A stretch of 64,000 nt of DNA from a virus (IMGVR_UViG_3300021968_000069:7679-71678), one strand, 5' to 3'. Numbered from the stretch's first letter, positions 10,041 to 23,166 are shown. Notes: generated by a model not told the origin, from the sequence alone. Made by a program: numbers and translations.

Positions 10041-11204
10041 TTAATTTTTACTGAATGTTACATCGGTCAGTTGCCTTCCATTATTCCAGATACTATAATC
10101 ACCACCATCTTTATGTATCTCCATCGTCTCGATCTTGCCAAACTTTTTTACATTACCTCCGAGGTCAACAACCCATCCTTCCTTTTTAGATCCATCTTCG
10201 AAAGTGTAAGGCCTCATTACACGACCAACCATTTGATAATACAATGCAAGGCTCATTGTGCTTCTTGCAAGCAGCATGCACTCAAGGCCCGGAAAATCAA
10301 AACCAGTTGTAAGTACTCCAACATTCACCACGCAGCGGATGGCACCTGACTTAAAATCAGCCAGTATCTTTTCCCTTTTTGATTTCTCGGTTTCGCCGGT
10401 GATCAGCACTGCGCCTGGTATGTATTGCATTGTTCTTCTCGCTTCATCAAGCAGCGAACAAAAAACAAGCAGGTTTCTTCGTTTACTCAGCATGTGGTTT
10501 GCCCACTTAGCTGTCAGCTTTTCAAAATTTATTTTGCGATAAAGGAACCTGAGTGAGTCTGCTGAGAAATCATTTCCTTGTTTATTAACCTGCAGCATAT
10601 TCCTGTCAATGGCATCTATGGAGAAATACTTTAGTGGCGCCAGGTGACCAGCATCGAACAATACGCTGTTGTTTATATAGTACAGCACATCACTGAATAC
10701 CCGCTGATCAGTGGTTGTTATCCATTCAAGCATGGATCCATCGAAAGTTGAGGTGAGCCTGTAAGGAGTAGCCGTTAATCCAAGCACCTTTGCATGTGAT
10801 ATTGAATCCAGGAAGTCTTTATACATTCCATTGCTGGCATTCACCAAATGACACTCATCAATAATTATATTCTTAAACTTATTGAACAAATGATGCTTGC
10901 TGGCCACACTCCCTATCGTTGCAAAAGTGATATCATCAACCATCTTGCTGCCGGCAGAAGCGCTGTAAATCCCTGCACGATAGCCATAGCTGGTAAACTT
11001 TGCAAAATTCTGCTCCAGTATCTCTTTAGATGGCTGAAATACGATCGACTTTCCTGAAAGGTTTTTGGCAATGTTGGCGATCACAACACTCTTGCCGGAT
11101 CCTGTTGGCAATATTTCAATAGCATGATACTTTCTATCATCATGAAAGAAGTCAACGGCTTTTCCTATTGCATCGGTTTGATATGGTCGTGGAGTGAATG
11201 ACAT
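10041..11204 (-). CDS. Superfamily II DEAD/DEAH helicase
   Basis: LPTGSGKS, IIDECH, GLTATP, VLTTGFDFP, QMVGRVMR. Confidence 0.92.
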   Translation of the reverse strand: MSFTPRPYQTDAIGKAVDFFHDDRKYHAIEILPTGSGKSVVIANIAKNLSGKSIVFQPSKEILEQNFAKFTSYGYRAGIYSASAGSKMVDDITFATIGSVASKHHLFNKFKNIIIDECHLVNASNGMYKDFLDSISHAKVLGLTATPYRLTSTFDGSMLEWITTTDQRVFSDVLYYINNSVLFDAGHLAPLKYFSIDAIDRNMLQVNKQGNDFSADSLRFLYRKINFEKLTAKWANHMLSKRRNLLVFCSLLDEARRTMQYIPGAVLITGETEKSKREKILADFKSGAIRCVVNVGVLTTGFDFPGLECMLLARSTMSLALYYQMVGRVMRPYTFEDGSKKEGWVVDLGGNVKKFGKIETMEIHKDGGDYSIWNNGRQLTDVTFSKN

Positions 11205-11827
11205 TATACTTCAGCTGATGCTAATTCGTTTTCCAGTACTTCATTTTTTTCACCTTGTTTGAAAAGATTTCCCTGGCCCTTATCATCCTTCTCTTCTTCA
11301 TCTTTTTTCACCGGCGTATAATTGCCTTCTTTATACAGTGCTACTTCTAATCGAGCATTGTCGCAAACTGTTTTAAGTTCATTGTACCATTTGTAAGAAG
11401 AAAGATTGTCAAGAGTGATCTCAGGACTTTTCAGCTCCATCCATCCACCAGCCGAACTCACATACTTTGTTCCCGTCAGCTTTACTGTTTCATAACCCTT
11501 TGTGCTTTTCATTTTGAACCCTGATACCCGGTACAGTTCTGATAGTTCATGCACATGTAGCGCACCTATATCTTCAATTTCAATTTTGCTGTGTTTGAAT
11601 ACTTCATCGATAACCGCCATGTGAGCATTGAATTTTGAAAAGGCATTTAACAGGCCATCTTTTACAATACCGGATCCTTCAACCTTGTGCTTATCGCCAA
11701 TCCCTATGCCTTCGATAACTTCATATGTGTAATTACAGAAGTCATCTTTTACCGATGCTTCAATGATGGAGAAGCTGCGACCAGTTGTAAGCTGCTCTTC
11801 ATTTTTTTTCTTTTTTCCTTTTGCCAT
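11204..11827 (-). CDS. Hypothetical protein
   Basis: ORF track; 1-nt overlap with the helicase gene. Confidence 0.7.
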   Translation of the reverse strand: MAKGKKKKNEEQLTTGRSFSIIEASVKDDFCNYTYEVIEGIGIGDKHKVEGSGIVKDGLLNAFSKFNAHMAVIDEVFKHSKIEIEDIGALHVHELSELYRVSGFKMKSTKGYETVKLTGTKYVSSAGGWMELKSPEITLDNLSSYKWYNELKTVCDNARLEVALYKEGNYTPVKKDEEEKDDKGQGNLFKQGEKNEVLENELASAEV

Positions 11828-11838
11828 TAGTTTGGTTT

Positions 11839-12135
11839 TTAAGTGAATTGATATCTTTCGTTAGTATTTGTGATAGTTGTTTTAAACGGAAATCCATCTT
11901 CAGGGACCTGTTTTATTGTTTCAATTAAAGTCTTGGAACTGCACCAAGTAATATGCATTTCACCATTGATCTCTATTTGCATGTCCAGTCTCAAACCACA
12001 TGACTCATATTTTGATGGAACGATTCGGTACTTATGAACAATGATCTCCCGATTTAAAAGCCGGCTTATCTTCATCTTATCCCCTGCAAATCCTGTTTCG
12101 GGAGTTGCAATTCCCATTTCTTTAAACTGCTTCAT
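11839..12135 (-). CDS. 98-aa protein overlapping the RT stop; possible DGR accessory factor
   Basis: 14-nt overlap with RT; function unknown. Confidence 0.6.
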   Translation of the reverse strand: MKQFKEMGIATPETGFAGDKMKISRLLNREIIVHKYRIVPSKYESCGLRLDMQIEINGEMHITWCSSKTLIETIKQVPEDGFPFKTTITNTNERYQFT

Positions 12136-13081
12136 GCAATAAGGTTTTTATTAAATGATTGCTATTACAATGTTTTGCCCAACCGAGATATGAAGCTATC
12201 GATGCGTCATTCCTGTTAATAGAGATCATGCGGGCAAAATTTTGCTTGATCGCTTTTCTCAATAGAGTGTACCAATGGAAAAATCTGTACCCAACAAAAT
12301 CAATTCCTCTTGAGTCAACAGGGAATATTTGCCAGTTACCTTTTACTTCTAACCGTAGTATGTCTGCCAGGTATTGTTTGATCTTAATGAACAGTAAATG
12401 AAGATGCTCTTTACTATCGGATAGTATCACCAGGTCATCAGCATAACGGAAGTAATACTTTACTCTGAGCACTTGTTTTATCCAATGATCAAAATATGTA
12501 AGGAAGAAATTGGCGAGATATTGGCTCAGGTAATTTCCGATCGGTAGCCCGGGTGCACTGTCAATTATTTCATCAAGCAACCAAAGAAGATCTTTGTCCT
12601 TAAACTTTCTTCTGAGCAATTGCTTCATTACATTATGGTCAATTGATGGATAGAATTTCCTGATATCCATTTTCAAACAATACTGAGTACTGTGATAATC
12701 TCTTAATGCTTTTTGAACGCCATAAGCAGCCGCATGAATTCCTTTACCTTTTATGCAGCTATAAGTATCTGTTGTAAATGTTGAAACAAAAACAGACTCC
12801 AATACATTCATAATAGCATGATGGGTGATGCGATCGGGGAAATAAGGAAGCCGGTATACCTCACGTTCCTTCGGTTCAAATACTTTAAAAACTGTATAGT
12901 CAGATGTCTGATAAGTTTTATTGACCAACTGATCATGAAGAGTCAAGAGGTTGGCATCCCTGTTACGATCGTGGACCTTAACACCATACTGCCAGGCTTT
13001 ACCTTTTCGGGCTTTATTATCAGCCTCGATCAGGTTTTCCATACTGCAGATCCTTTGATATATGTTTCCGATGCGTTTCAC
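12122..13081 (-). CDS. DGR reverse transcriptase
   Basis: DIRKFYPSI, GLPIGNYLSQ, YFRYADD; no maturase/X or endonuclease domain; likely GTG start (MKRIGN) at 13081. Confidence 0.95.
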   Translation of the reverse strand: MKRIGNIYQRICSMENLIEADNKARKGKAWQYGVKVHDRNRDANLLTLHDQLVNKTYQTSDYTVFKVFEPKEREVYRLPYFPDRITHHAIMNVLESVFVSTFTTDTYSCIKGKGIHAAAYGVQKALRDYHSTQYCLKMDIRKFYPSIDHNVMKQLLRRKFKDKDLLWLLDEIIDSAPGLPIGNYLSQYLANFFLTYFDHWIKQVLRVKYYFRYADDLVILSDSKEHLHLLFIKIKQYLADILRLEVKGNWQIFPVDSRGIDFVGYRFFHWYTLLRKAIKQNFARMISINRNDASIASYLGWAKHCNSNHLIKTLLHEAV

Positions 13082-13188
13082 TTGTCTCTTTGCTTTTAAA
13101 AACTGGTCTTCACTTATGTTACCAACCAATCTTAGTTATGAGTCATTTTTTGCCAAGAGGCAGGGTCTGCGCTGCTATTAAATCTTCA

Positions 13189-13263
13189 GCATAGGTGAGA
13201 GCTGACATTCGAATTCGAGTTCTGGTTATCGTAGTCGTTGTACGAGAGACTGGAACCTGAAGA
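13189..13263 (-). repeat. DGR template repeat (75 nt, 20 adenines)
   Basis: TCT TCA GGT TCC AGT CTC TCG TAC AAC GAC TAC GAT AAC CAG AAC TCG AAT TCG AAT GTC AGC TCT CAC CTA TGC; intergenic, just upstream of RT. Confidence 0.95.
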
Positions 13264-13295
13264 AGGCCGCTCAAGCAGCACACCACCCATTCCTG

Positions 13296-13661
13296 TTATT
13301 TCAACAGGAAATATTGCTCATACAATTTTATAAACTGAGTTCCCGCATACTTTGCTAACTCCGATGATTTAAAGCAAAGGCGAGAGCCGACACCCGAAAG
13401 CGAGAGCTGGTCATCGTAGCCGAAGCACGAGAGACCGGAACCCGAAGACATGTCAAACCATGGATAGTATTTCCACTCGCTCATGTTGGTCCAATCAGGT
13501 TTCCATCCATCGTTCAATGCTTCAGCAATGATCACAAGCTTTGCGTATGCAATCGTTGAATCCTGGTGATTCTTTGGCATTGCCTTTACATCAGGAAGAC
13601 ATTTTTTTGGATCAAGCTTCAGCTTCTTACAAGCAGCTTCAAATGTTTTGATCAGTGACAT
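13296..13661 (-). CDS. DGR target protein 1 (121 aa)
   Basis: Carries VR1 near the C-terminus (SSGSGLSCFGYDDQLSLSGVGSRLC). Confidence 0.92.
   Translation of the reverse strand: MSLIKTFEAACKKLKLDPKKCLPDVKAMPKNHQDSTIAYAKLVIIAEALNDGWKPDWTNMSEWKYYPWFDMSSGSGLSCFGYDDQLSLSGVGSRLCFKSSELAKYAGTQFIKLYEQYFLLK
13374..13448 (-). repeat. DGR variable repeat VR1
   Basis: 16 mismatches to TR, all at TR adenines (9 G, 5 T, 2 C). Confidence 0.95.
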
Positions 13662-13666
13662 TGTTA

Positions 13667-14134
13667 TTATTTAATGATGAAAAAATCTGTGTACTCTTTG
13701 ATAAATTGTTTACCTGCGTATTCAGCAAGCTCACGGCTTTTAAAGCAAAGGCGAGAGCCGACACTCGAACCCGAGTTCCGGCCACCGTAGCCGACGAACG
13801 AGAGACCGGAACCCGAAGACATGTCAAACCATGGATAGTATTTGTATTGACTGTCGTTCTTCCAGTCCGGTACCCATCCTTCATTTAAAACCTCAACAAT
13901 TACTTTTATGATCTTATATGCGATCTCATCAGGAGTGTCATTATCATTGATGATGCTTGAGATCGATATCCCTTTTATCTTAAATGCATCATCAGCTGCT
14001 TTCACCCGGTCCATAATATTTTTCGGAACAAAAGTTTCCTTCCCGAAGAGATTTGCTAATACTTTTTTTACATCATCGCAGCCGCTATTATAAGCTTTGA
14101 GTGCATTTTCTTTTGTGATCTGTAGATTTTCCAT
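13667..14134 (-). CDS. DGR target protein 2 (155 aa), paralogue of target 1
   Basis: Carries VR2 (SSGSGLSFVGYGGRNSGSSVGSRLC). Confidence 0.92.
   Translation of the reverse strand: MENLQITKENALKAYNSGCDDVKKVLANLFGKETFVPKNIMDRVKAADDAFKIKGISISSIINDNDTPDEIAYKIIKVIVEVLNEGWVPDWKNDSQYKYYPWFDMSSGSGLSFVGYGGRNSGSSVGSRLCFKSRELAEYAGKQFIKEYTDFFIIK
13745..13819 (-). repeat. DGR variable repeat VR2
   Basis: 16 mismatches to TR, all at TR adenines (13 G, 3 T). Confidence 0.95.
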
Positions 14135-14144
14135 CAGTTAGTAT

Positions 14145-14885
14145 TTAAAAAGGTTTTTTATTAAAGGAGATATTCATTCCTGCATCAGCAACATGCACGG
14201 TCTTACCAGTTGCTTCTTCCACTTCACGTTTAAATCTCTTTGCATCACTATTGCCATCGCTTAAATGAATAAGAACAATATTGTTGACACTGCTGAGATC
14301 ATAAGCTTCTAATGTTTGCTTACAGGTTGCCAGGCTCATATGTGATGTGATCACCCGGTCACGCAGGAACTTTGGATTGGCCCCATCTGCTACACGCTGA
14401 TCAAGAATACCCTGGCAATAATTTGCTTCAATGATGACATTGTTTAGGCCTTTGAAATTGTATTCACAGTAATAACTATCGGTAAGGAACAGCACGGTAC
14501 CACATTCAGGATGACTTATCAAATAACCCACAGGATCCGCAGCATCATGCTTTACTTCAAATGCTTTTACCGTAAATGATCCAAGCTTGAATTCATAACC
14601 TTGCTTCACAGCTTTTGCCCGGTGATGTTTATCGGTACCCATGGCCATGTGAGTGGCAACTGTCGCCCAAACATTGATGCCAGCTCCCAATACATTACCA
14701 ACAGACTTACAATGGTCCTTGTGCTCATGAGTAACAATACAGCCAACGATCTTTGATATCTGGTAACCGATAGCTTGTTTTATTCTATCCCATTGCACAC
14801 CGCACTCAATGAGCAACGCCTCTTTGTCGTTTGACAGGATATAGGCGTTGCCGCTTGAGTTGCTATTGATGACGGTTAGTTGCAT
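14145..14885 (-). CDS. MBL-fold metallo-hydrolase (phage recombination module)
   Basis: SSGNAY, THEHKDH, HDAADP, FLTD, HMS, LIHLS. Confidence 0.88.
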   Translation of the reverse strand: MQLTVINSNSSGNAYILSNDKEALLIECGVQWDRIKQAIGYQISKIVGCIVTHEHKDHCKSVGNVLGAGINVWATVATHMAMGTDKHHRAKAVKQGYEFKLGSFTVKAFEVKHDAADPVGYLISHPECGTVLFLTDSYYCEYNFKGLNNVIIEANYCQGILDQRVADGANPKFLRDRVITSHMSLATCKQTLEAYDLSSVNNIVLIHLSDGNSDAKRFKREVEEATGKTVHVADAGMNISFNKKPF

Positions 14886-14886
14886 T

Positions 14887-15927
14887 TTAGAATGGAGCTT
14901 TCTTTTGTTCTGGTTCTTTTACTTCGCCTGTTTGCTTATCTACGTTTTCATTTTTATCAACAGGATCTTTGATCTCTTCTGCTTCTTCAAACTCCATTGT
15001 TTTTTTATTGGCATTGTCAGTGATCTCTGCTTTTACCTGGTTATCCCGGTACTCACTTTCTTTTAATATCAAAGCCAGGTAATTGCTATCGATCTTTTCC
15101 GAGTCGATGGTGATCGCATTGTAAGCAGCCCGGTAAATAGTTTTGTGAGCCATTTCATCATACCATCCTTCCACCTGTTCTTTGCCCCGCTTTACATTTT
15201 TTTGTTGAGCATCATCCCATTCCCATTTATCTTTTTCACCACCCCAAAACTCAGCTGATGCATACTCCGGTTTTCTTTTATCGATATCCTTTTTTGAAAA
15301 TACCTTTAGCCTATTCTTCTCTGGTGTTTTGAAGAAATTGTGATAATAAAATCCCCCGACTATTTCACCGCGATCAAAGTTTTCTGTCACTTCGAAAATG
15401 TAGCTTTCAACTTTGTTATTGTTATCCTTTTTTATTTGAACAAACTTGTCTTTCGCATACACCAGTTCCACCACCACTTCATCAGGCATATCAAGACCGT
15501 ATTTTTTGGCCTTCAGTTCAATACCCCGGTAACCAGGAATGAAAGTGATGTCATACTTACCGGTTGATTTATTCTTATATGGTATCGGGTTCAGTTGGTT
15601 TGGCTGAGTGGGATCAAGACCAACACTGGAGTAAATGATCACATCATTTGCCAGTTTTTGAATGTTCACGTTTTCCCAAATAAGGGGAGTGGGGTCAGCA
15701 TAACTTTTTTTCTGTTGCCGCTTTAATTCAGAATCTTTCAGCATCATATCAATCTTGATAAAGTAATTCTGGCAAAGCTTTTTTTGAAAAGAAGTGAGGT
15801 TCAGTTCGCCGCCATTGTTAGCAGAGAATTCACGCATCACCGCATTGGTGAATCTTTCAGAATGTGATGGTTGTTGTTTGGCAACCGCTGTGTCGGTCCC
15901 ATTAGGTGTTTTAATGTCTGTAGTCAT
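14887..15927 (-). CDS. RecT-family single-strand annealing protein
   Basis: GLDP...IPY, GYRGIEL, GEIVGGF, WYDEMAHKT; lies between the ATPase and MBL genes. Confidence 0.75.
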   Translation of the reverse strand: MTTDIKTPNGTDTAVAKQQPSHSERFTNAVMREFSANNGGELNLTSFQKKLCQNYFIKIDMMLKDSELKRQQKKSYADPTPLIWENVNIQKLANDVIIYSSVGLDPTQPNQLNPIPYKNKSTGKYDITFIPGYRGIELKAKKYGLDMPDEVVVELVYAKDKFVQIKKDNNNKVESYIFEVTENFDRGEIVGGFYYHNFFKTPEKNRLKVFSKKDIDKRKPEYASAEFWGGEKDKWEWDDAQQKNVKRGKEQVEGWYDEMAHKTIYRAAYNAITIDSEKIDSNYLALILKESEYRDNQVKAEITDNANKKTMEFEEAEEIKDPVDKNENVDKQTGEVKEPEQKKAPF

Positions 15928-15957: not shown

Positions 15958-17967
15958 TTATGCGACCGCCGCCAATTGTGCAGCATTTTCAATTCTCAGT
16001 TTTTTATCCGGCGCTGAAACTATCAGGTTGATCAGCTGGCAATTTGTTTCCGGCAGCTTTACTACACTCTCTCTGTTATCAACCCATACCGGCGCCTGTA
16101 CTCCGTAATGATCAGAAAGAGTATTTATGATATCAAGACCAGCTTGAATCTTACCGGCTGTATTTGCATCAGAGTAAGGCACTCCATTCAGTAATGTGGT
16201 GCATGCTTCTACCTGGCCACCGTTGATCTGCTCTTCAAACATTTTAAACTGTACCAATTTGAAACGGCCATTGATACGGCTTTCCAGTGTATCCATTTTT
16301 GCCTTTGTAAATTGATCAATGGAATATTCAACACCTTCAAGGCTGGCCAGCTCCTGCGCCATGTTTTGTTCTTGCGCTTCCAGTTCTTTAATACGGGCCA
16401 GTTGTTTTTCACGCTGCTCTTTGGTTTGTAGTTCACGTTTCAGCTCATCCAGCCTGGTAGAAAGCTCTCTTTTGCGATTCAGCAGTTCAGTATTATCATC
16501 AGCTTTAAAAGGAGTGTTGATCTCTTCATTAAGCAAAGCAATCTTTTCATTGATGGCGATCCATTCTGTATTTGTTGCCACCGCTTTTTTTACCTGCTCG
16601 GCTTCATCAGCGGTTAATCTTGTATGCTCTTCGTCCAGGATAGCGATATCGGTCTGCAAAACTTCAATTTCACTTTTAAGTGAAACTCCTTTTAAAGTTG
16701 TATTAGCGATCTTTGAAGTCAGCACAAGTATTTCATCAGCCGCTTTTTTCCCTTGCGTAACTATTTCATCAAGTCTTTTTGACTTATCACTATTAAAGTT
16801 GGCCAGGAGGGTAGATTTTTTGGATTCAATATCTGAATCCTCAAATGCACGTTTGCAGGCGGGACAGTGGAAATCATTATCATTAAATACCAATTGTTCC
16901 TTATCTACATCTTCCCATTTTTTGGTGAGCTCCTGTTTATCAGCCTGGAGTCTTTCCAATTTTTTATTATCGATATCATAATCGCCCAGTAACCTGTTTC
17001 GCTCATCCAGTTTACTGCGGAGTGTGGCTTTTTTATCAATGATCACCTGCTCACGGTCACGACCAGTTTGTTGTACTTTATTTTTTTCTTCAAATTCTAT
17101 TTGCTGGTTGCGGGCACGATTATCACCCACCTCTTTTATTTTAGCAGTGATGGCAGCTTGGTGTTCCTTTGCTGCTTTTGTTTTATTCATCAGCAGGCTT
17201 TCCGTTGTGTCGAGGTTGGTAGCCGCATCATTTAGCAGGATCTCAATTTCTTTGTAATTCTTATCTTCTGGTAGTGCACGGTTTGCTTCTTCAATGCGGG
17301 AGGGTAGAAGCAGCAATTCATCTTTGAACTTTTTCTTCTTAGCAGAAATTTCTTTTTTGAATTCTTCAATTGTTTTTTTCTCCTGCAATGCTTTCACCAG
17401 TGGTTTAAATGATTCGTCATTGCCTGCGCCTATCTCATTAAGTACATCGATATCACTTATGGTACCAGCCATCTGCATTAGCACAGCACGGCGATCCTGC
17501 CATTTAAGATTATTGAAGTAAGTTGTATTGGTGATCAGCTTAAAAAGCCTTTCATCAACAAGGCCAGCGATCTTTGCCTGGTATTCTTCCTGCTTCATCG
17601 GTACGTCATTCCAGAAGTAACCGGTTTCATGACCTTTGAATTCTGACGTGGTAGCCCCTCTTGTCTTTACCCATTTTTCACGCAATGACCGGCGAAGAGT
17701 AATTTCATTTCCATCAACAACCAGTATCGCTTCCACTTCATGATCAAGATGGTGAAATGGTTGATTGTTCTCATCCAGCGTTTTTATTTCAAAATCTTTT
17801 CTGTCAGTACTGTCCTTACCGAAGAGCAACCAGAGAAAAGCATCCATCAATGTTGTTTTACCGGTAGCATTGTCACCAAGTATATTAGTCACGGAATCGA
17901 AAGCGATGGTGAGAGAGCGGATCCCTTTGAAGTTGGAGAGGGATAGTTTTTTGATTTCAATTTTCAT
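15958..17967 (-). CDS. Rad50/SbcC-like coiled-coil ATPase
   Basis: LSNFKGI, GDNATGKTT, coiled coil with central CPACKR hook, C-terminal VWVDNRE. Confidence 0.88.
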   Translation of the reverse strand: MKIEIKKLSLSNFKGIRSLTIAFDSVTNILGDNATGKTTLMDAFLWLLFGKDSTDRKDFEIKTLDENNQPFHHLDHEVEAILVVDGNEITLRRSLREKWVKTRGATTSEFKGHETGYFWNDVPMKQEEYQAKIAGLVDERLFKLITNTTYFNNLKWQDRRAVLMQMAGTISDIDVLNEIGAGNDESFKPLVKALQEKKTIEEFKKEISAKKKKFKDELLLLPSRIEEANRALPEDKNYKEIEILLNDAATNLDTTESLLMNKTKAAKEHQAAITAKIKEVGDNRARNQQIEFEEKNKVQQTGRDREQVIIDKKATLRSKLDERNRLLGDYDIDNKKLERLQADKQELTKKWEDVDKEQLVFNDNDFHCPACKRAFEDSDIESKKSTLLANFNSDKSKRLDEIVTQGKKAADEILVLTSKIANTTLKGVSLKSEIEVLQTDIAILDEEHTRLTADEAEQVKKAVATNTEWIAINEKIALLNEEINTPFKADDNTELLNRKRELSTRLDELKRELQTKEQREKQLARIKELEAQEQNMAQELASLEGVEYSIDQFTKAKMDTLESRINGRFKLVQFKMFEEQINGGQVEACTTLLNGVPYSDANTAGKIQAGLDIINTLSDHYGVQAPVWVDNRESVVKLPETNCQLINLIVSAPDKKLRIENAAQLAAVA

Positions 17968-21795: not shown

Positions 21796-21984
21796 TACAC
21801 AGCACCGTACACAAACCAACCCTATGAATACACAAAAAGCATTGAAGTACACAGTAATGACATTGATAATCAATTGTATTTATTGCTAAGGTAGAATCTC
21901 GTACGGGCTACAAGGGTTTATAAATAGTTGATTGCAAGGTCTATCCAAGGCACCAATGCTTTAACGTACACAAGTGAGTACACA
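21796..21984 (+). other. Putative intact attP
   Basis: tRNA-3'-end-like core 21894-21913; six TACACA direct repeats; IHF consensus AATCAACTATTTA (minus strand, 21921-21933). Confidence 0.7.
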
Positions 21985-21996
21985 AAAACATTGGTT

Positions 21997-23166
21997 ATGA
22001 CACTCGATCAACCTTCGAAACTTTACACAGAGCCGAAGATATCTCCGGCCGAACCTGAATCATCACACATGTCCATTAACTGGTATGTATGGTTCAGGTT
22101 TTTTGATGCTACAACCGGAAAGTGGCAGCAAATCCGCTACAAGAAAGGGATCAATGAATTCAAGAATTTCCGTGAACGGCTGGCTGAAGCCAATGCGCTG
22201 AAGCAGGCGCTTAAAGAAGAACTCCGTGATGGATGGAACCCACTTGTAAAGGACCGGTTACTTTCAATAAAGATCTACTCGATAGAAGATGCATTCAAAC
22301 ATATGATTGGTATAAAGGAGATGACGCTTAAAATTAAAACAAAATATGCCTACCGGTATATTACAAACCTTTTTTTAGAATGGCTGCGGTCAAAGGGGCT
22401 TAATGGACTTGCTATAAAAAGATTTACTCCGGGCCAGGCACAGGAATATATGGACTGGATGCTTATGAAAAAAAAGTATAGCGGCCGGACCTTCAATGAT
22501 CACCTGATCGTGCTACGTACATTTTTTAATTGCTTTATAGAACGTGACTGGATCCAGAAGAATGTTTTCCGATCGGTGAAAAGAAAAACGCAGGTGGTTG
22601 GAAGAAACCTTGCTTATACCGATAATGAAAAGAAGTTGCTGGAGCAAGAACTTTATAATAATGACAGGAGACTATATTTTTTTACCCAGATCATGTTTCA
22701 TTGCTTTATAAGACGAACAGAGAATGTTTCCTTGAAAATAAAACATATCGATCTATTAAATAGAACAATCGTAATACCTGGTGGGAATGCAAAAAACAAT
22801 CACCAGGAGAGTGTTGTTATCCCGGAAGGGTTGATACAGGTCTTAAAAGAAATGGAGCTGCATAGATATAACTCTGAAGATTATTTGTTCGGAAGAAAAT
22901 TATTAACGGGACCCATTCAATATAAAAATCCTGACTGGATCACTACAAGACATAAAAAATTTATTACCAAGTTGAATATAAAAGGAGAGAAGAACCTGTA
23001 CAGCTGGAAACATACCGGTGTCTGTGCTTATTACTATGCTACTGGAAAAGATCTCTTTTCTTTAATGCGGCAGCTGAGGCACCGGAATATATCTACAACG
23101 CAAATTTATTTGAAATCAATGGGCCTTATACAAAATGAAGCATTCAGAAATGCAATGGTTGCCTAA
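21997..23166 (+). CDS. int: Tyrosine recombinase / integrase
   Basis: CFIRRTE (R), AKN (K), YSWKHTG, QLRHRNISTTQIY (H, Y); start moved to MTLDQP, outside attP. Confidence 0.92.
   Translation: MTLDQPSKLYTEPKISPAEPESSHMSINWYVWFRFFDATTGKWQQIRYKKGINEFKNFRERLAEANALKQALKEELRDGWNPLVKDRLLSIKIYSIEDAFKHMIGIKEMTLKIKTKYAYRYITNLFLEWLRSKGLNGLAIKRFTPGQAQEYMDWMLMKKKYSGRTFNDHLIVLRTFFNCFIERDWIQKNVFRSVKRKTQVVGRNLAYTDNEKKLLEQELYNNDRRLYFFTQIMFHCFIRRTENVSLKIKHIDLLNRTIVIPGGNAKNNHQESVVIPEGLIQVLKEMELHRYNSEDYLFGRKLLTGPIQYKNPDWITTRHKKFITKLNIKGEKNLYSWKHTGVCAYYYATGKDLFSLMRQLRHRNISTTQIYLKSMGLIQNEAFRNAMVA

Follow-up and report, generated by a model that had tools for sequence, protein, structure and literature searches.

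We examined a locus in which a diversity-generating retroelement (DGR) diversifies two small genes of a phage recombination and replication operon. The locus lies in the IMG/VR contig IMGVR_UViG_3300021968_000069, a record of 71,678 bp (71.7 kb) that is estimated to be 75% complete; the window, by which we mean the whole stretch presented here, is a 64,000-nt part of this record. The host group of the phage is Bacteroidota, and the element is temperate because it carries an integrase gene (Table 1). Every element of the DGR locus is on the minus strand. Two target genes, target 2 (the long paralogue) and target 1 (the short paralogue) in their order on that strand, each enclose a variable repeat (VR) and are followed by a template repeat (TR), a reverse transcriptase (RT) and an open reading frame (ORF) of 98 amino acids (aa). 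The preliminary description of this DNA had placed the targets between recombination genes and a helicase, and Pfam searches bear this out, with an SMC/SbcC-like ATPase, RecT and a metallo-β-lactamase (MBL)-fold hydrolase upstream and a ResIII helicase downstream. Along the operon the intergenic gaps measure 1 to 30 nt, with the exception of the 166 nt that hold the TR, and RecT, the MBL gene and the targets are tightly packed, with gaps of 1 to 10 nt. No terminator-like site was found between the operon genes on the minus strand.

Table 1. Features of the DGR locus and further landmarks, in window coordinates.
Feature	Position	Strand	Basis or remark
SMC/SbcC-like ATPase	17967..15958	-	Pfam
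RecT	15927..14887	-	Pfam
MBL-fold hydrolase	14885..14145	-	Pfam; stop 10 nt ahead of target 2
Target 2, 155 aa (P0002), long paralogue	14134..13667	-	ORF and translation
VR2	13819..13744	-	internal, codons 106-130 of target 2; TR alignment
Target 1, 121 aa (P0001), short paralogue	13661..13296	-	begins 5 nt beyond target 2
VR1	13448..13373	-	internal to target 1; TR alignment
TR, 76 nt, non-coding, in the target 1/RT interval	13263..13188	-	repeat alignment
Reverse transcriptase, 335 aa, TTG start	13129..12122	-	RVT_1 3.5e-17; phrog_1423 2.8e-123
98-aa basic ORF, predicted OB fold	12135..11839	-	14-nt overlap with RT stop
207-aa ORF, without assigned function	11827..11204	-	Pfam and PHROG searches
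ResIII/DEAD helicase	11204..10041	-	Pfam
Integrase	21928-23166		temperate element
Late genes (protease, tape measure, others)	38-62 kb		

VR1 and VR2 each differ from the TR at 16 positions, and in each all of these (16/16) fall on TR adenines, so that the pooled count is 32/32. Since the TR has 20 A among its 76 nt, the hypergeometric chance that 16 mismatches would all hit A positions is 4.5e-13 per VR. The TR includes five AAY codons and translates in frame as SSGSSLSYNDYDNQNSNSNVSSHLC. The arrangement of one TR and two VRs with 16 adenine-restricted mismatches apiece had been proposed before and is borne out by our alignment, as are the numbers of adenines and AAY codons; the length given for the TR, 75 nt, is corrected here to 76. 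The RT that adjoins the TR matches RVT_1 in Pfam and phrog_1423, carries a YADD box and an LPIGNYLSQ motif of the IGxxxSQ type in its translation, and is 33% identical to Brt of phage BPP-1 over 310 aa (E 2e-51). With adenine-restricted TR/VR differences and a DGR-type RT beside the TR, the cassette is a diversity-generating retroelement. As folded RNA, the TR region is not unusually stable (z -0.65).

To locate remote VRs, the TR was turned into a pattern with every A changed to N and three mismatches allowed. Only three sites were found, the TR, VR1 and VR2, whether the window or the full 71,678-bp record was searched, and the pattern gave 0 hits in 100 shuffles of the window. No further VR, in tail genes or elsewhere, is therefore present in the 71,678-bp record, which covers an estimated 75% of the genome; the earlier view that the tail genes hold no VR copy stands for the available 71.7 kb.

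Counting all A-containing codons gives 4.98e10 peptide variants per target. This reproduces the arithmetic behind the figure of 5e10 in the preliminary description, and it is an upper bound. In an alignment of 53 relatives, the codons AGT, AGC and CAC always become Gly, Gly and Arg, and column entropy marks ten codons per target as truly variable (residues 113-120, 122 and 124 of target 2). Because only ten codons are hypervariable and three A-containing codons are fixed, the effective repertoire per target is 15^5 x 4^5 = 7.8e8 rather than 4.98e10. The position of the fixed codons was followed further in 139 distinct TR/VR pairs, aligned from the 3' end. Within the final ~16 nt, a TR adenine nearly always corresponds to one fixed VR base (for example 45/47 G, 37/40 G and 45/51 T), and from ~19 nt upstream of the 3' end all four bases occur at TR-A sites, including retained A. 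A fixed 3' end of ~16 nt fits the asymmetry between IMH and IMH* (initiation of mutagenic homing) sites, and selection for an invariant Gly-Ser-Arg-Leu would look identical.

IMG/VR holds more than 441 relatives, of which 80 loci were fetched in addition to loci from contig look-ups. The usual order is long target, short target, TR, RT and an ORF of ~100 aa; the number of targets varies, and some loci carry one, three or four. In 76/84 loci an RT with 52-71% identity lies directly downstream. Each of the 155 target copies in the 76 related loci has its TR in the interval from the last target to the RT, and TR adenines account for 2140 of the 2231 mismatches between TR and VR (96%). Three loci (L042, L065 and L075) have extra family copies 2-6 kb off the cassette, in the same early region, whose TR mismatches are confined to adenines. 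Members of the family are found in Chitinophagaceae, Flavobacterium, Chryseobacterium, Elizabethkingia, Dyadobacter, Pedobacter, Alistipes, Prevotella and Ignavibacteria.

One relative, L090, carries a target 2 whose protein is 94% identical to that of the window and whose DNA differs at 10/468 positions. Nine of these ten differences are in the VR, all at TR-A positions, and a single one lies in the remaining 392 nt. We read this pattern as the footprint of recent homing events, and because 9/10 differences sit at TR-A positions of the VR the DGR has been active recently. Collectively, the adenine pattern, the Brt-homologous RT and the recent changes relative to L090 uphold the original identification of a DGR and mark the cassette as a complete, recently active member of a Bacteroidota-phage lineage.

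In other relatives the retroelement is decaying. A more distant relative, L004/L005, at ~80% nucleotide identity, retains both targets and the TR and has lost the RT and the 98-aa ORF; its VRs differ from its own TR at 17 and 13 positions, at adenines only, and the two non-adenine changes of the TR are mirrored in its own VRs. The segment L004:10001-11650 corresponds to ENA ERZ28614469 scaffold_70. In L040 and L069 the TR is kept, the RT is gone and the targets are intact; L040 is also without the 98-aa ORF, and in L069 this ORF directly follows the TR, an arrangement that excision of just the RT would leave behind. Finally, L049, L072 and L074 have targets and no TR. Since the targets persist in L004, L040 and L069 without an RT and in L049, L072 and L074 without a TR, they outlive the retroelement. 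Losses of this kind could be expected if the cassette were a selfish or decaying passenger and its targets mere homing sites with no selected binding function. We regard this as very improbable. Thousands of clusters share a strongly conserved scaffold that includes invariant residues, Gly, Gly and Arg are always restored at A-containing codons, which needs either selection or a fixed homing end, and the pair of long and short targets is itself conserved. That the targets stay intact after loss of the RT argues for a function of their own.

The target proteins were then considered as a family. Targets 1 and 2 are paralogues with 52% identity, and the extra part of target 2 is an N-terminal helical hairpin of ~35 aa. 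The sole clear family match of either is phrog_11581, for which no function is assigned (1.6e-28 for target 2 and 1.3e-30 for target 1), and scans of both against Pfam, NCBIfam and PADLOC gave no match. Target 2 has at least 1418 homologues among 90%-identity clusters, and a profile built from 53 relatives collects, at E up to 1e-3, 5058 clusters of 50% identity. Almost all members are 150-165 aa long, with some tandem fusions of 250-350 aa; a search limited to longer proteins, made for clues to function, returned only four members, all tandem fusions. The residues A72, N84, K98, G126, R128, L129 and F144 are invariant, and the hypervariable loop sits between conserved KYYPWF and VGSRLCF segments. 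The family is mildly acidic (median pI, isoelectric point, 5.4). Neither the targets nor their relatives have a signal peptide, and no transmembrane or hydrophobic segment was found in 53 relatives, the highest 19-residue Kyte-Doolittle mean being 1.51. The prior account of the targets as two small paralogues of 121 and 155 aa that lack both kinds of segment is thus sustained.

Target 2 was modelled with AlphaFold2 (AF2) at a mean predicted local distance difference test score (pLDDT) of 85 and a predicted template modelling score (pTM) of 0.72. It consists of five to seven helices and a long irregular segment, placed with confidence, in which aromatic residues abound (NEGWxPDW...KYYPWF). The C-type lectin fold that had been expected was sought with Foldseek, VIA-align, hhalign and sequence searches and was not recovered, with the VR loop poorly modelled. 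Foldseek found no PDB match below E 1, the top Z of VIA-align over 48,161 chains was 3.5 with no C-type lectin listed, and searching PDB sequences with the family profile yielded nothing below E 0.08. The fold lists contain no C-type lectin, immunoglobulin (Ig) or other convincing fold, and an hhalign comparison of the family with Mtd returned a probability of 0.2. Matches in BFVD are uncharacterised phage proteins only, including crAss-like ones, and the ESM Atlas holds only unnamed clusters. In C-type lectin DGR proteins such as Mtd, TvpA and TaqVP the VR is at the extreme C-terminus; in both targets it is followed by 25 residues that are modelled as two helices.

The genomic surroundings of the family provide the main clue to where the targets act. 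Relatives keep the targets among replication genes even though these modules are of at least five different kinds: upstream RecT and MBL, downstream DnaB; a primase and methylases, in a Muricauda prophage; YqaJ/HNH upstream with a helicase and a methylase downstream, in Epilithonimonas; DUF4406 upstream with a 997-aa protein downstream; and a PDDEXK nuclease and a ssDNA-binding protein upstream with PolA downstream. Across 67 non-redundant loci, 220/242 adjacent ORFs are co-directional. We also scanned 150 larger neighbours within 4 kb at 45 loci against PHROG; the commonest families are helicase, ATPase, DNA methyltransferases, MuB-like, annealing protein and HNH, and no tail fibre is among the top 25. 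In the window the targets lie between the MBL gene and the RT, not in the tail module with the late genes. What this analysis adds is that the cassette consistently lies within a set of replication and recombination genes and shares their direction.

From this context we consider it reasonably likely that the targets act inside the cell as non-virion variable binding proteins. Operon placement, the recurring replication context, co-directionality and the lack of an export signal all point in this direction. The preliminary description had suggested a hypervariable intracellular binder, and its account of non-tail, operon-embedded targets without signal peptides holds; that such a protein binds host defence or regulatory proteins we infer from context. 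An intracellular protein could also serve the lysogen, with prophage-expressed targets acting as variable sensors or decoys in superinfection exclusion or anti-phage defence and not in phage counter-defence. The element is temperate, many family members are in prophages of sequenced Bacteroidota, and the Quimbyvirus counterpart has defence and counter-defence genes as its neighbours (Benler et al. 2021, PMC8008677). However, the genes are deep in the leftward early operon, whose replication genes are as a rule repressed in a lysogen; no promoter or terminator separates the targets from the rest (a sigma-70 promoter scan of the locus being uninformative for Bacteroidota), and they match no known defence-system protein. 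We therefore hold a function for the lysogen to be distinctly unlikely.

Cultured phages offer a different perspective on the intracellular role. With target 2 as query, tblastn against cultured phages gave one weak match, and a gut-type relative as query reached further homologues in Phocaeicola phage PV4-TP1 and in the Bacteroides phages BI-TP1, LoVEphage, BT-TP2 and Versailles. PV4-TP1 gp58 aligns with the family profile at 99.6% hhalign probability and has methyltransferase and tRNA-ligase genes as neighbours. It constitutes a remote VR whose TR is at 22772-22878 (15/15 mismatches at adenines). The Versailles homologue (ON453897.1 10181-10762; L172:6944-7525) aligns with the family at 99.4% and follows SbcC-like, RecT, MBL and NinB genes, in an order identical to that of the window; its VR corresponds to two sites beside the RT, which lies with the TR next to another target ~43 kb off. 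The slot within the recombination module is thus the same with a local or a remote RT, which ties it to the role of the protein and not to the retroelement. In BT-TP2 an unannotated family gene is split over the record ends (PQ571279.1 44949-45155 and 1-297; L091), beside lysogeny genes; the record start probably cuts through it.

Several observations weigh against an intracellular role and would instead suit virion-associated adhesins or receptor-binding adaptors, in the tail tip or as decoration, that are encoded outside the structural module and let the DGR switch host range as in BPP-1. The primary target of the PV4-TP1 TR is gp23, an Mtd_N-like tail protein, and gp58 shares that TR; the Versailles TR likewise diversifies an Mtd_N-like tail protein besides the family member. 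The VR segment is therefore interchangeable with that of a receptor-binding protein, because the shared TR diversifies both. For the same reason it would be compatible with a binding face of the C-type lectin type, which would allow a role in the virion, and the targets may be a reduced C-type lectin variant. The missing signal peptide is equally normal for virion proteins. The targets have a weak match to phrog_232, 'baseplate wedge' (E 1.3e-4), the Versailles homologue is labelled 'tail protein' in ON453897 by automatic HHpred/PHROG transfer, and terminase, head-protease and neck families are near the targets in a few loci. The target model fits no known fold and says nothing on function, with pLDDT below 50 in the VR loop. 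Roux et al. 2021 (PMC8144416) caution that the protein cluster PC_00007, to which we assign the targets below, could be an unrecognised structural protein.

Contrary to what a virion adhesin would lead one to expect, many phages place the gene in replication and recombination operons and not beside tail genes. The similarity to the tail protein ends at the VR: gp58 and gp23 are alike only across a VR segment of ~40 aa, where they are 58% identical, and outside the VR an hhalign comparison with the PV4-TP1 tail protein revealed no relation to the family. The 'tail protein' label is probably an over-transfer from a weak PHROG match. At 121-155 aa the targets have no recognised attachment domain, and only 1.6% of PC_00007 is predicted to be structural by PhANNs, in a cluster listed as non-structural/unknown (Roux et al. 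2021, Supplementary Note 8, PMC8144416). We judge a place in the virion to be unlikely, and favour an intracellular one.

The family itself has been catalogued. Roux et al. 2021 (PMC8144416) list PC_00007 as 'Phage_other', in DGR clade 1 with FCB-group hosts, and the family signature is present in their entries 2585424986/7, 2588220293/4, 2596883267/8 and 2576065990/1, all PC_00007 Phage_other. Judged by motif and visible similarity, the window targets belong to PC_00007: they share its KYYPWF...GSRLCFK signature, its adjacent long and short pairs beside the RT and its VR at relative position 0.65-0.8. The published entry comes without fold, genomic context, accessory gene or function; context and accessory gene are analysed here. 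Benler et al. 2021 (PMC8008677) described a second DGR target of Quimbyvirus that is not in the structural module but amid methyltransferase and tRNA-ligase genes, and suggested that it acts in phage-host conflict. Because its methyltransferase and tRNA-ligase neighbours match that description, PV4-TP1 gp58 is, judged by gene context, the probable counterpart of the Quimbyvirus target. The kind of target is thus not new, having been catalogued by Roux et al. and discussed in its Quimbyvirus form by Benler et al. The preliminary description started from tail fibres as the sole known targets of phage DGRs, a premise that has been superseded by Benler et al. 2021 (PMC8008677) and by Roux et al. 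2021 (PMC8144416). The arrangement in the window differs from that in PV4-TP1. There, the family member is a remote second target with a VR of ~40 aa and the primary target is an Mtd-like tail protein; here, two in-cassette family members are the only targets, the VR is 25 aa and no tail target occurs in 71.7 kb.

Similar to the BPP-1 cassette (mtd-avd-TR-brt), the window cassette has a homologous RT, adenine-specific mutagenesis, the TR upstream of the RT and an apparently fixed VR 3' end. Unlike in BPP-1, the target is not a tail fibre and has no similarity to the Mtd profile, the VR is internal and not C-terminal, there are two tandem targets, and no Avd is present, an OB-fold ORF following the RT instead. 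Counterparts to some of these features are described by Wu et al. 2018 (PMC5758913), namely DGRs without Avd, DGRs with two targets (13%) and internal-VR classes without a recognisable motif. An Ig fold has been tentatively assigned to some internal-VR classes, whereas the window target model is helical. The RT cluster of the PC_00007 family in Roux et al. carries the name of the Wu entry t122 (PMC8144416).

The 98-aa ORF was evaluated as a possible accessory gene. Its start overlaps the RT stop by 14 nt, which points to translational coupling, and it is found downstream of the RT in most related loci, with a divergent homologue also in a distant RT subclade. Over 20 loci the family has a mean column identity of 62% and is basic (median pI 8.9). 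Scans against Pfam, NCBIfam and PADLOC found nothing. The AF2 model (pLDDT 88) has five strands and one helix between strands 3 and 4; its best fold match is the oligonucleotide/oligosaccharide-binding (OB) domain of RuvBL2 (Z 6.9, root mean square deviation 3.1 over 68 residues), followed by single-stranded DNA-binding proteins and PriB at Z 5-6. The modelled protein likely belongs to the OB-fold class, the Z values being moderate.

In BPP-1 the corresponding accessory protein is Avd, a basic four-helix-bundle pentamer. The 98-aa protein has no similarity to BPP-1 Avd and gave no alignment with it, and none of the neighbouring ORFs has an Avd match in Pfam. The missing Avd does not bar membership among DGRs, because DGRs without avd are known (Wu et al. 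2018, PMC5758913). By its position and predicted fold, the 98-aa OB-fold protein is a candidate DGR accessory factor that would replace Avd. A literature search found no publication joining DGR, Avd and OB fold.

These results can be assembled into a mechanism, read from the sequence for the retroelement and from context for its targets. The RT copies the TR RNA, with random bases placed opposite adenines, and in each target gene the complementary DNA takes the place of an internal stretch of 60 nt, while the 16 nt at the 3' end probably serve as a fixed homing end. Ten codons per target are randomised in this way, to give up to ~8e8 peptides each, and they form one loop. The targets would be co-transcribed with the recombination and replication genes as small, soluble, mildly acidic proteins without export signals, and from this context we take them to be non-virion, intracellular variable binding proteins. 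Their most likely use would be in phage-host or phage-phage conflict, for instance as binders of variable proteins of the host or of prophages, either early in infection or following induction. The basic, RT-coupled OB-fold protein may assume the nucleic-acid-binding accessory role that Avd has in BPP-1.

We tentatively go one step further and suggest that PC_00007 could be an intracellular antibody-like repertoire of phages that neutralises varying host or rival-phage proteins early, with the OB-fold accessory in place of Avd. As part of this same tentative proposal, the scaffold would be minimal, not recognisably a C-type lectin, and would carry one hypervariable loop retuned by the DGR. It is a more doubtful claim than intracellular action as such, which we consider the better bet.

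To our knowledge, what has been learned about the function of phage DGRs comes almost entirely from receptor-binding tail proteins. A cluster of small non-tail targets, thousands in number and found in Bacteroidota phages, has been catalogued with no explanation of its function, and the window presents the cleanest form of this arrangement, a DGR that serves only small non-tail targets inside a recombination operon. Should the targets indeed work inside the cell, programmed hypervariation would for the first time be seen to be directed at intracellular partners, and the targets would offer a natural minimal scaffold for the evolution of binders. Phage Versailles, an inducible prophage of B. 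caecimuris, a species of the OMM12 consortium, and phage PV4-TP1 both carry DGR-target homologues and are testable models. The candidate OB-fold replacement of Avd is a second, separate question for DGR biochemistry.

Three neighbouring genes gave further observations. The 207-aa ORF had no family match, and weak relatives were seen at the equivalent place in only two fetched loci (L014 and L023). The SMC/SbcC-like ATPase matches the PADLOC model of LmuB (Lamassu) at 2.2e-21 over nearly its full length; given its context, it is more likely a phage recombination protein of the SbcC/Rad50 type. The MBL-fold hydrolase has a weak, sub-threshold match to the anti-Pycsar protein Apyc1 (E 4.7e-4, 20 bits against a cut-off of 50), and an MBL-fold gene also precedes the family member in L004, L090 and Versailles.

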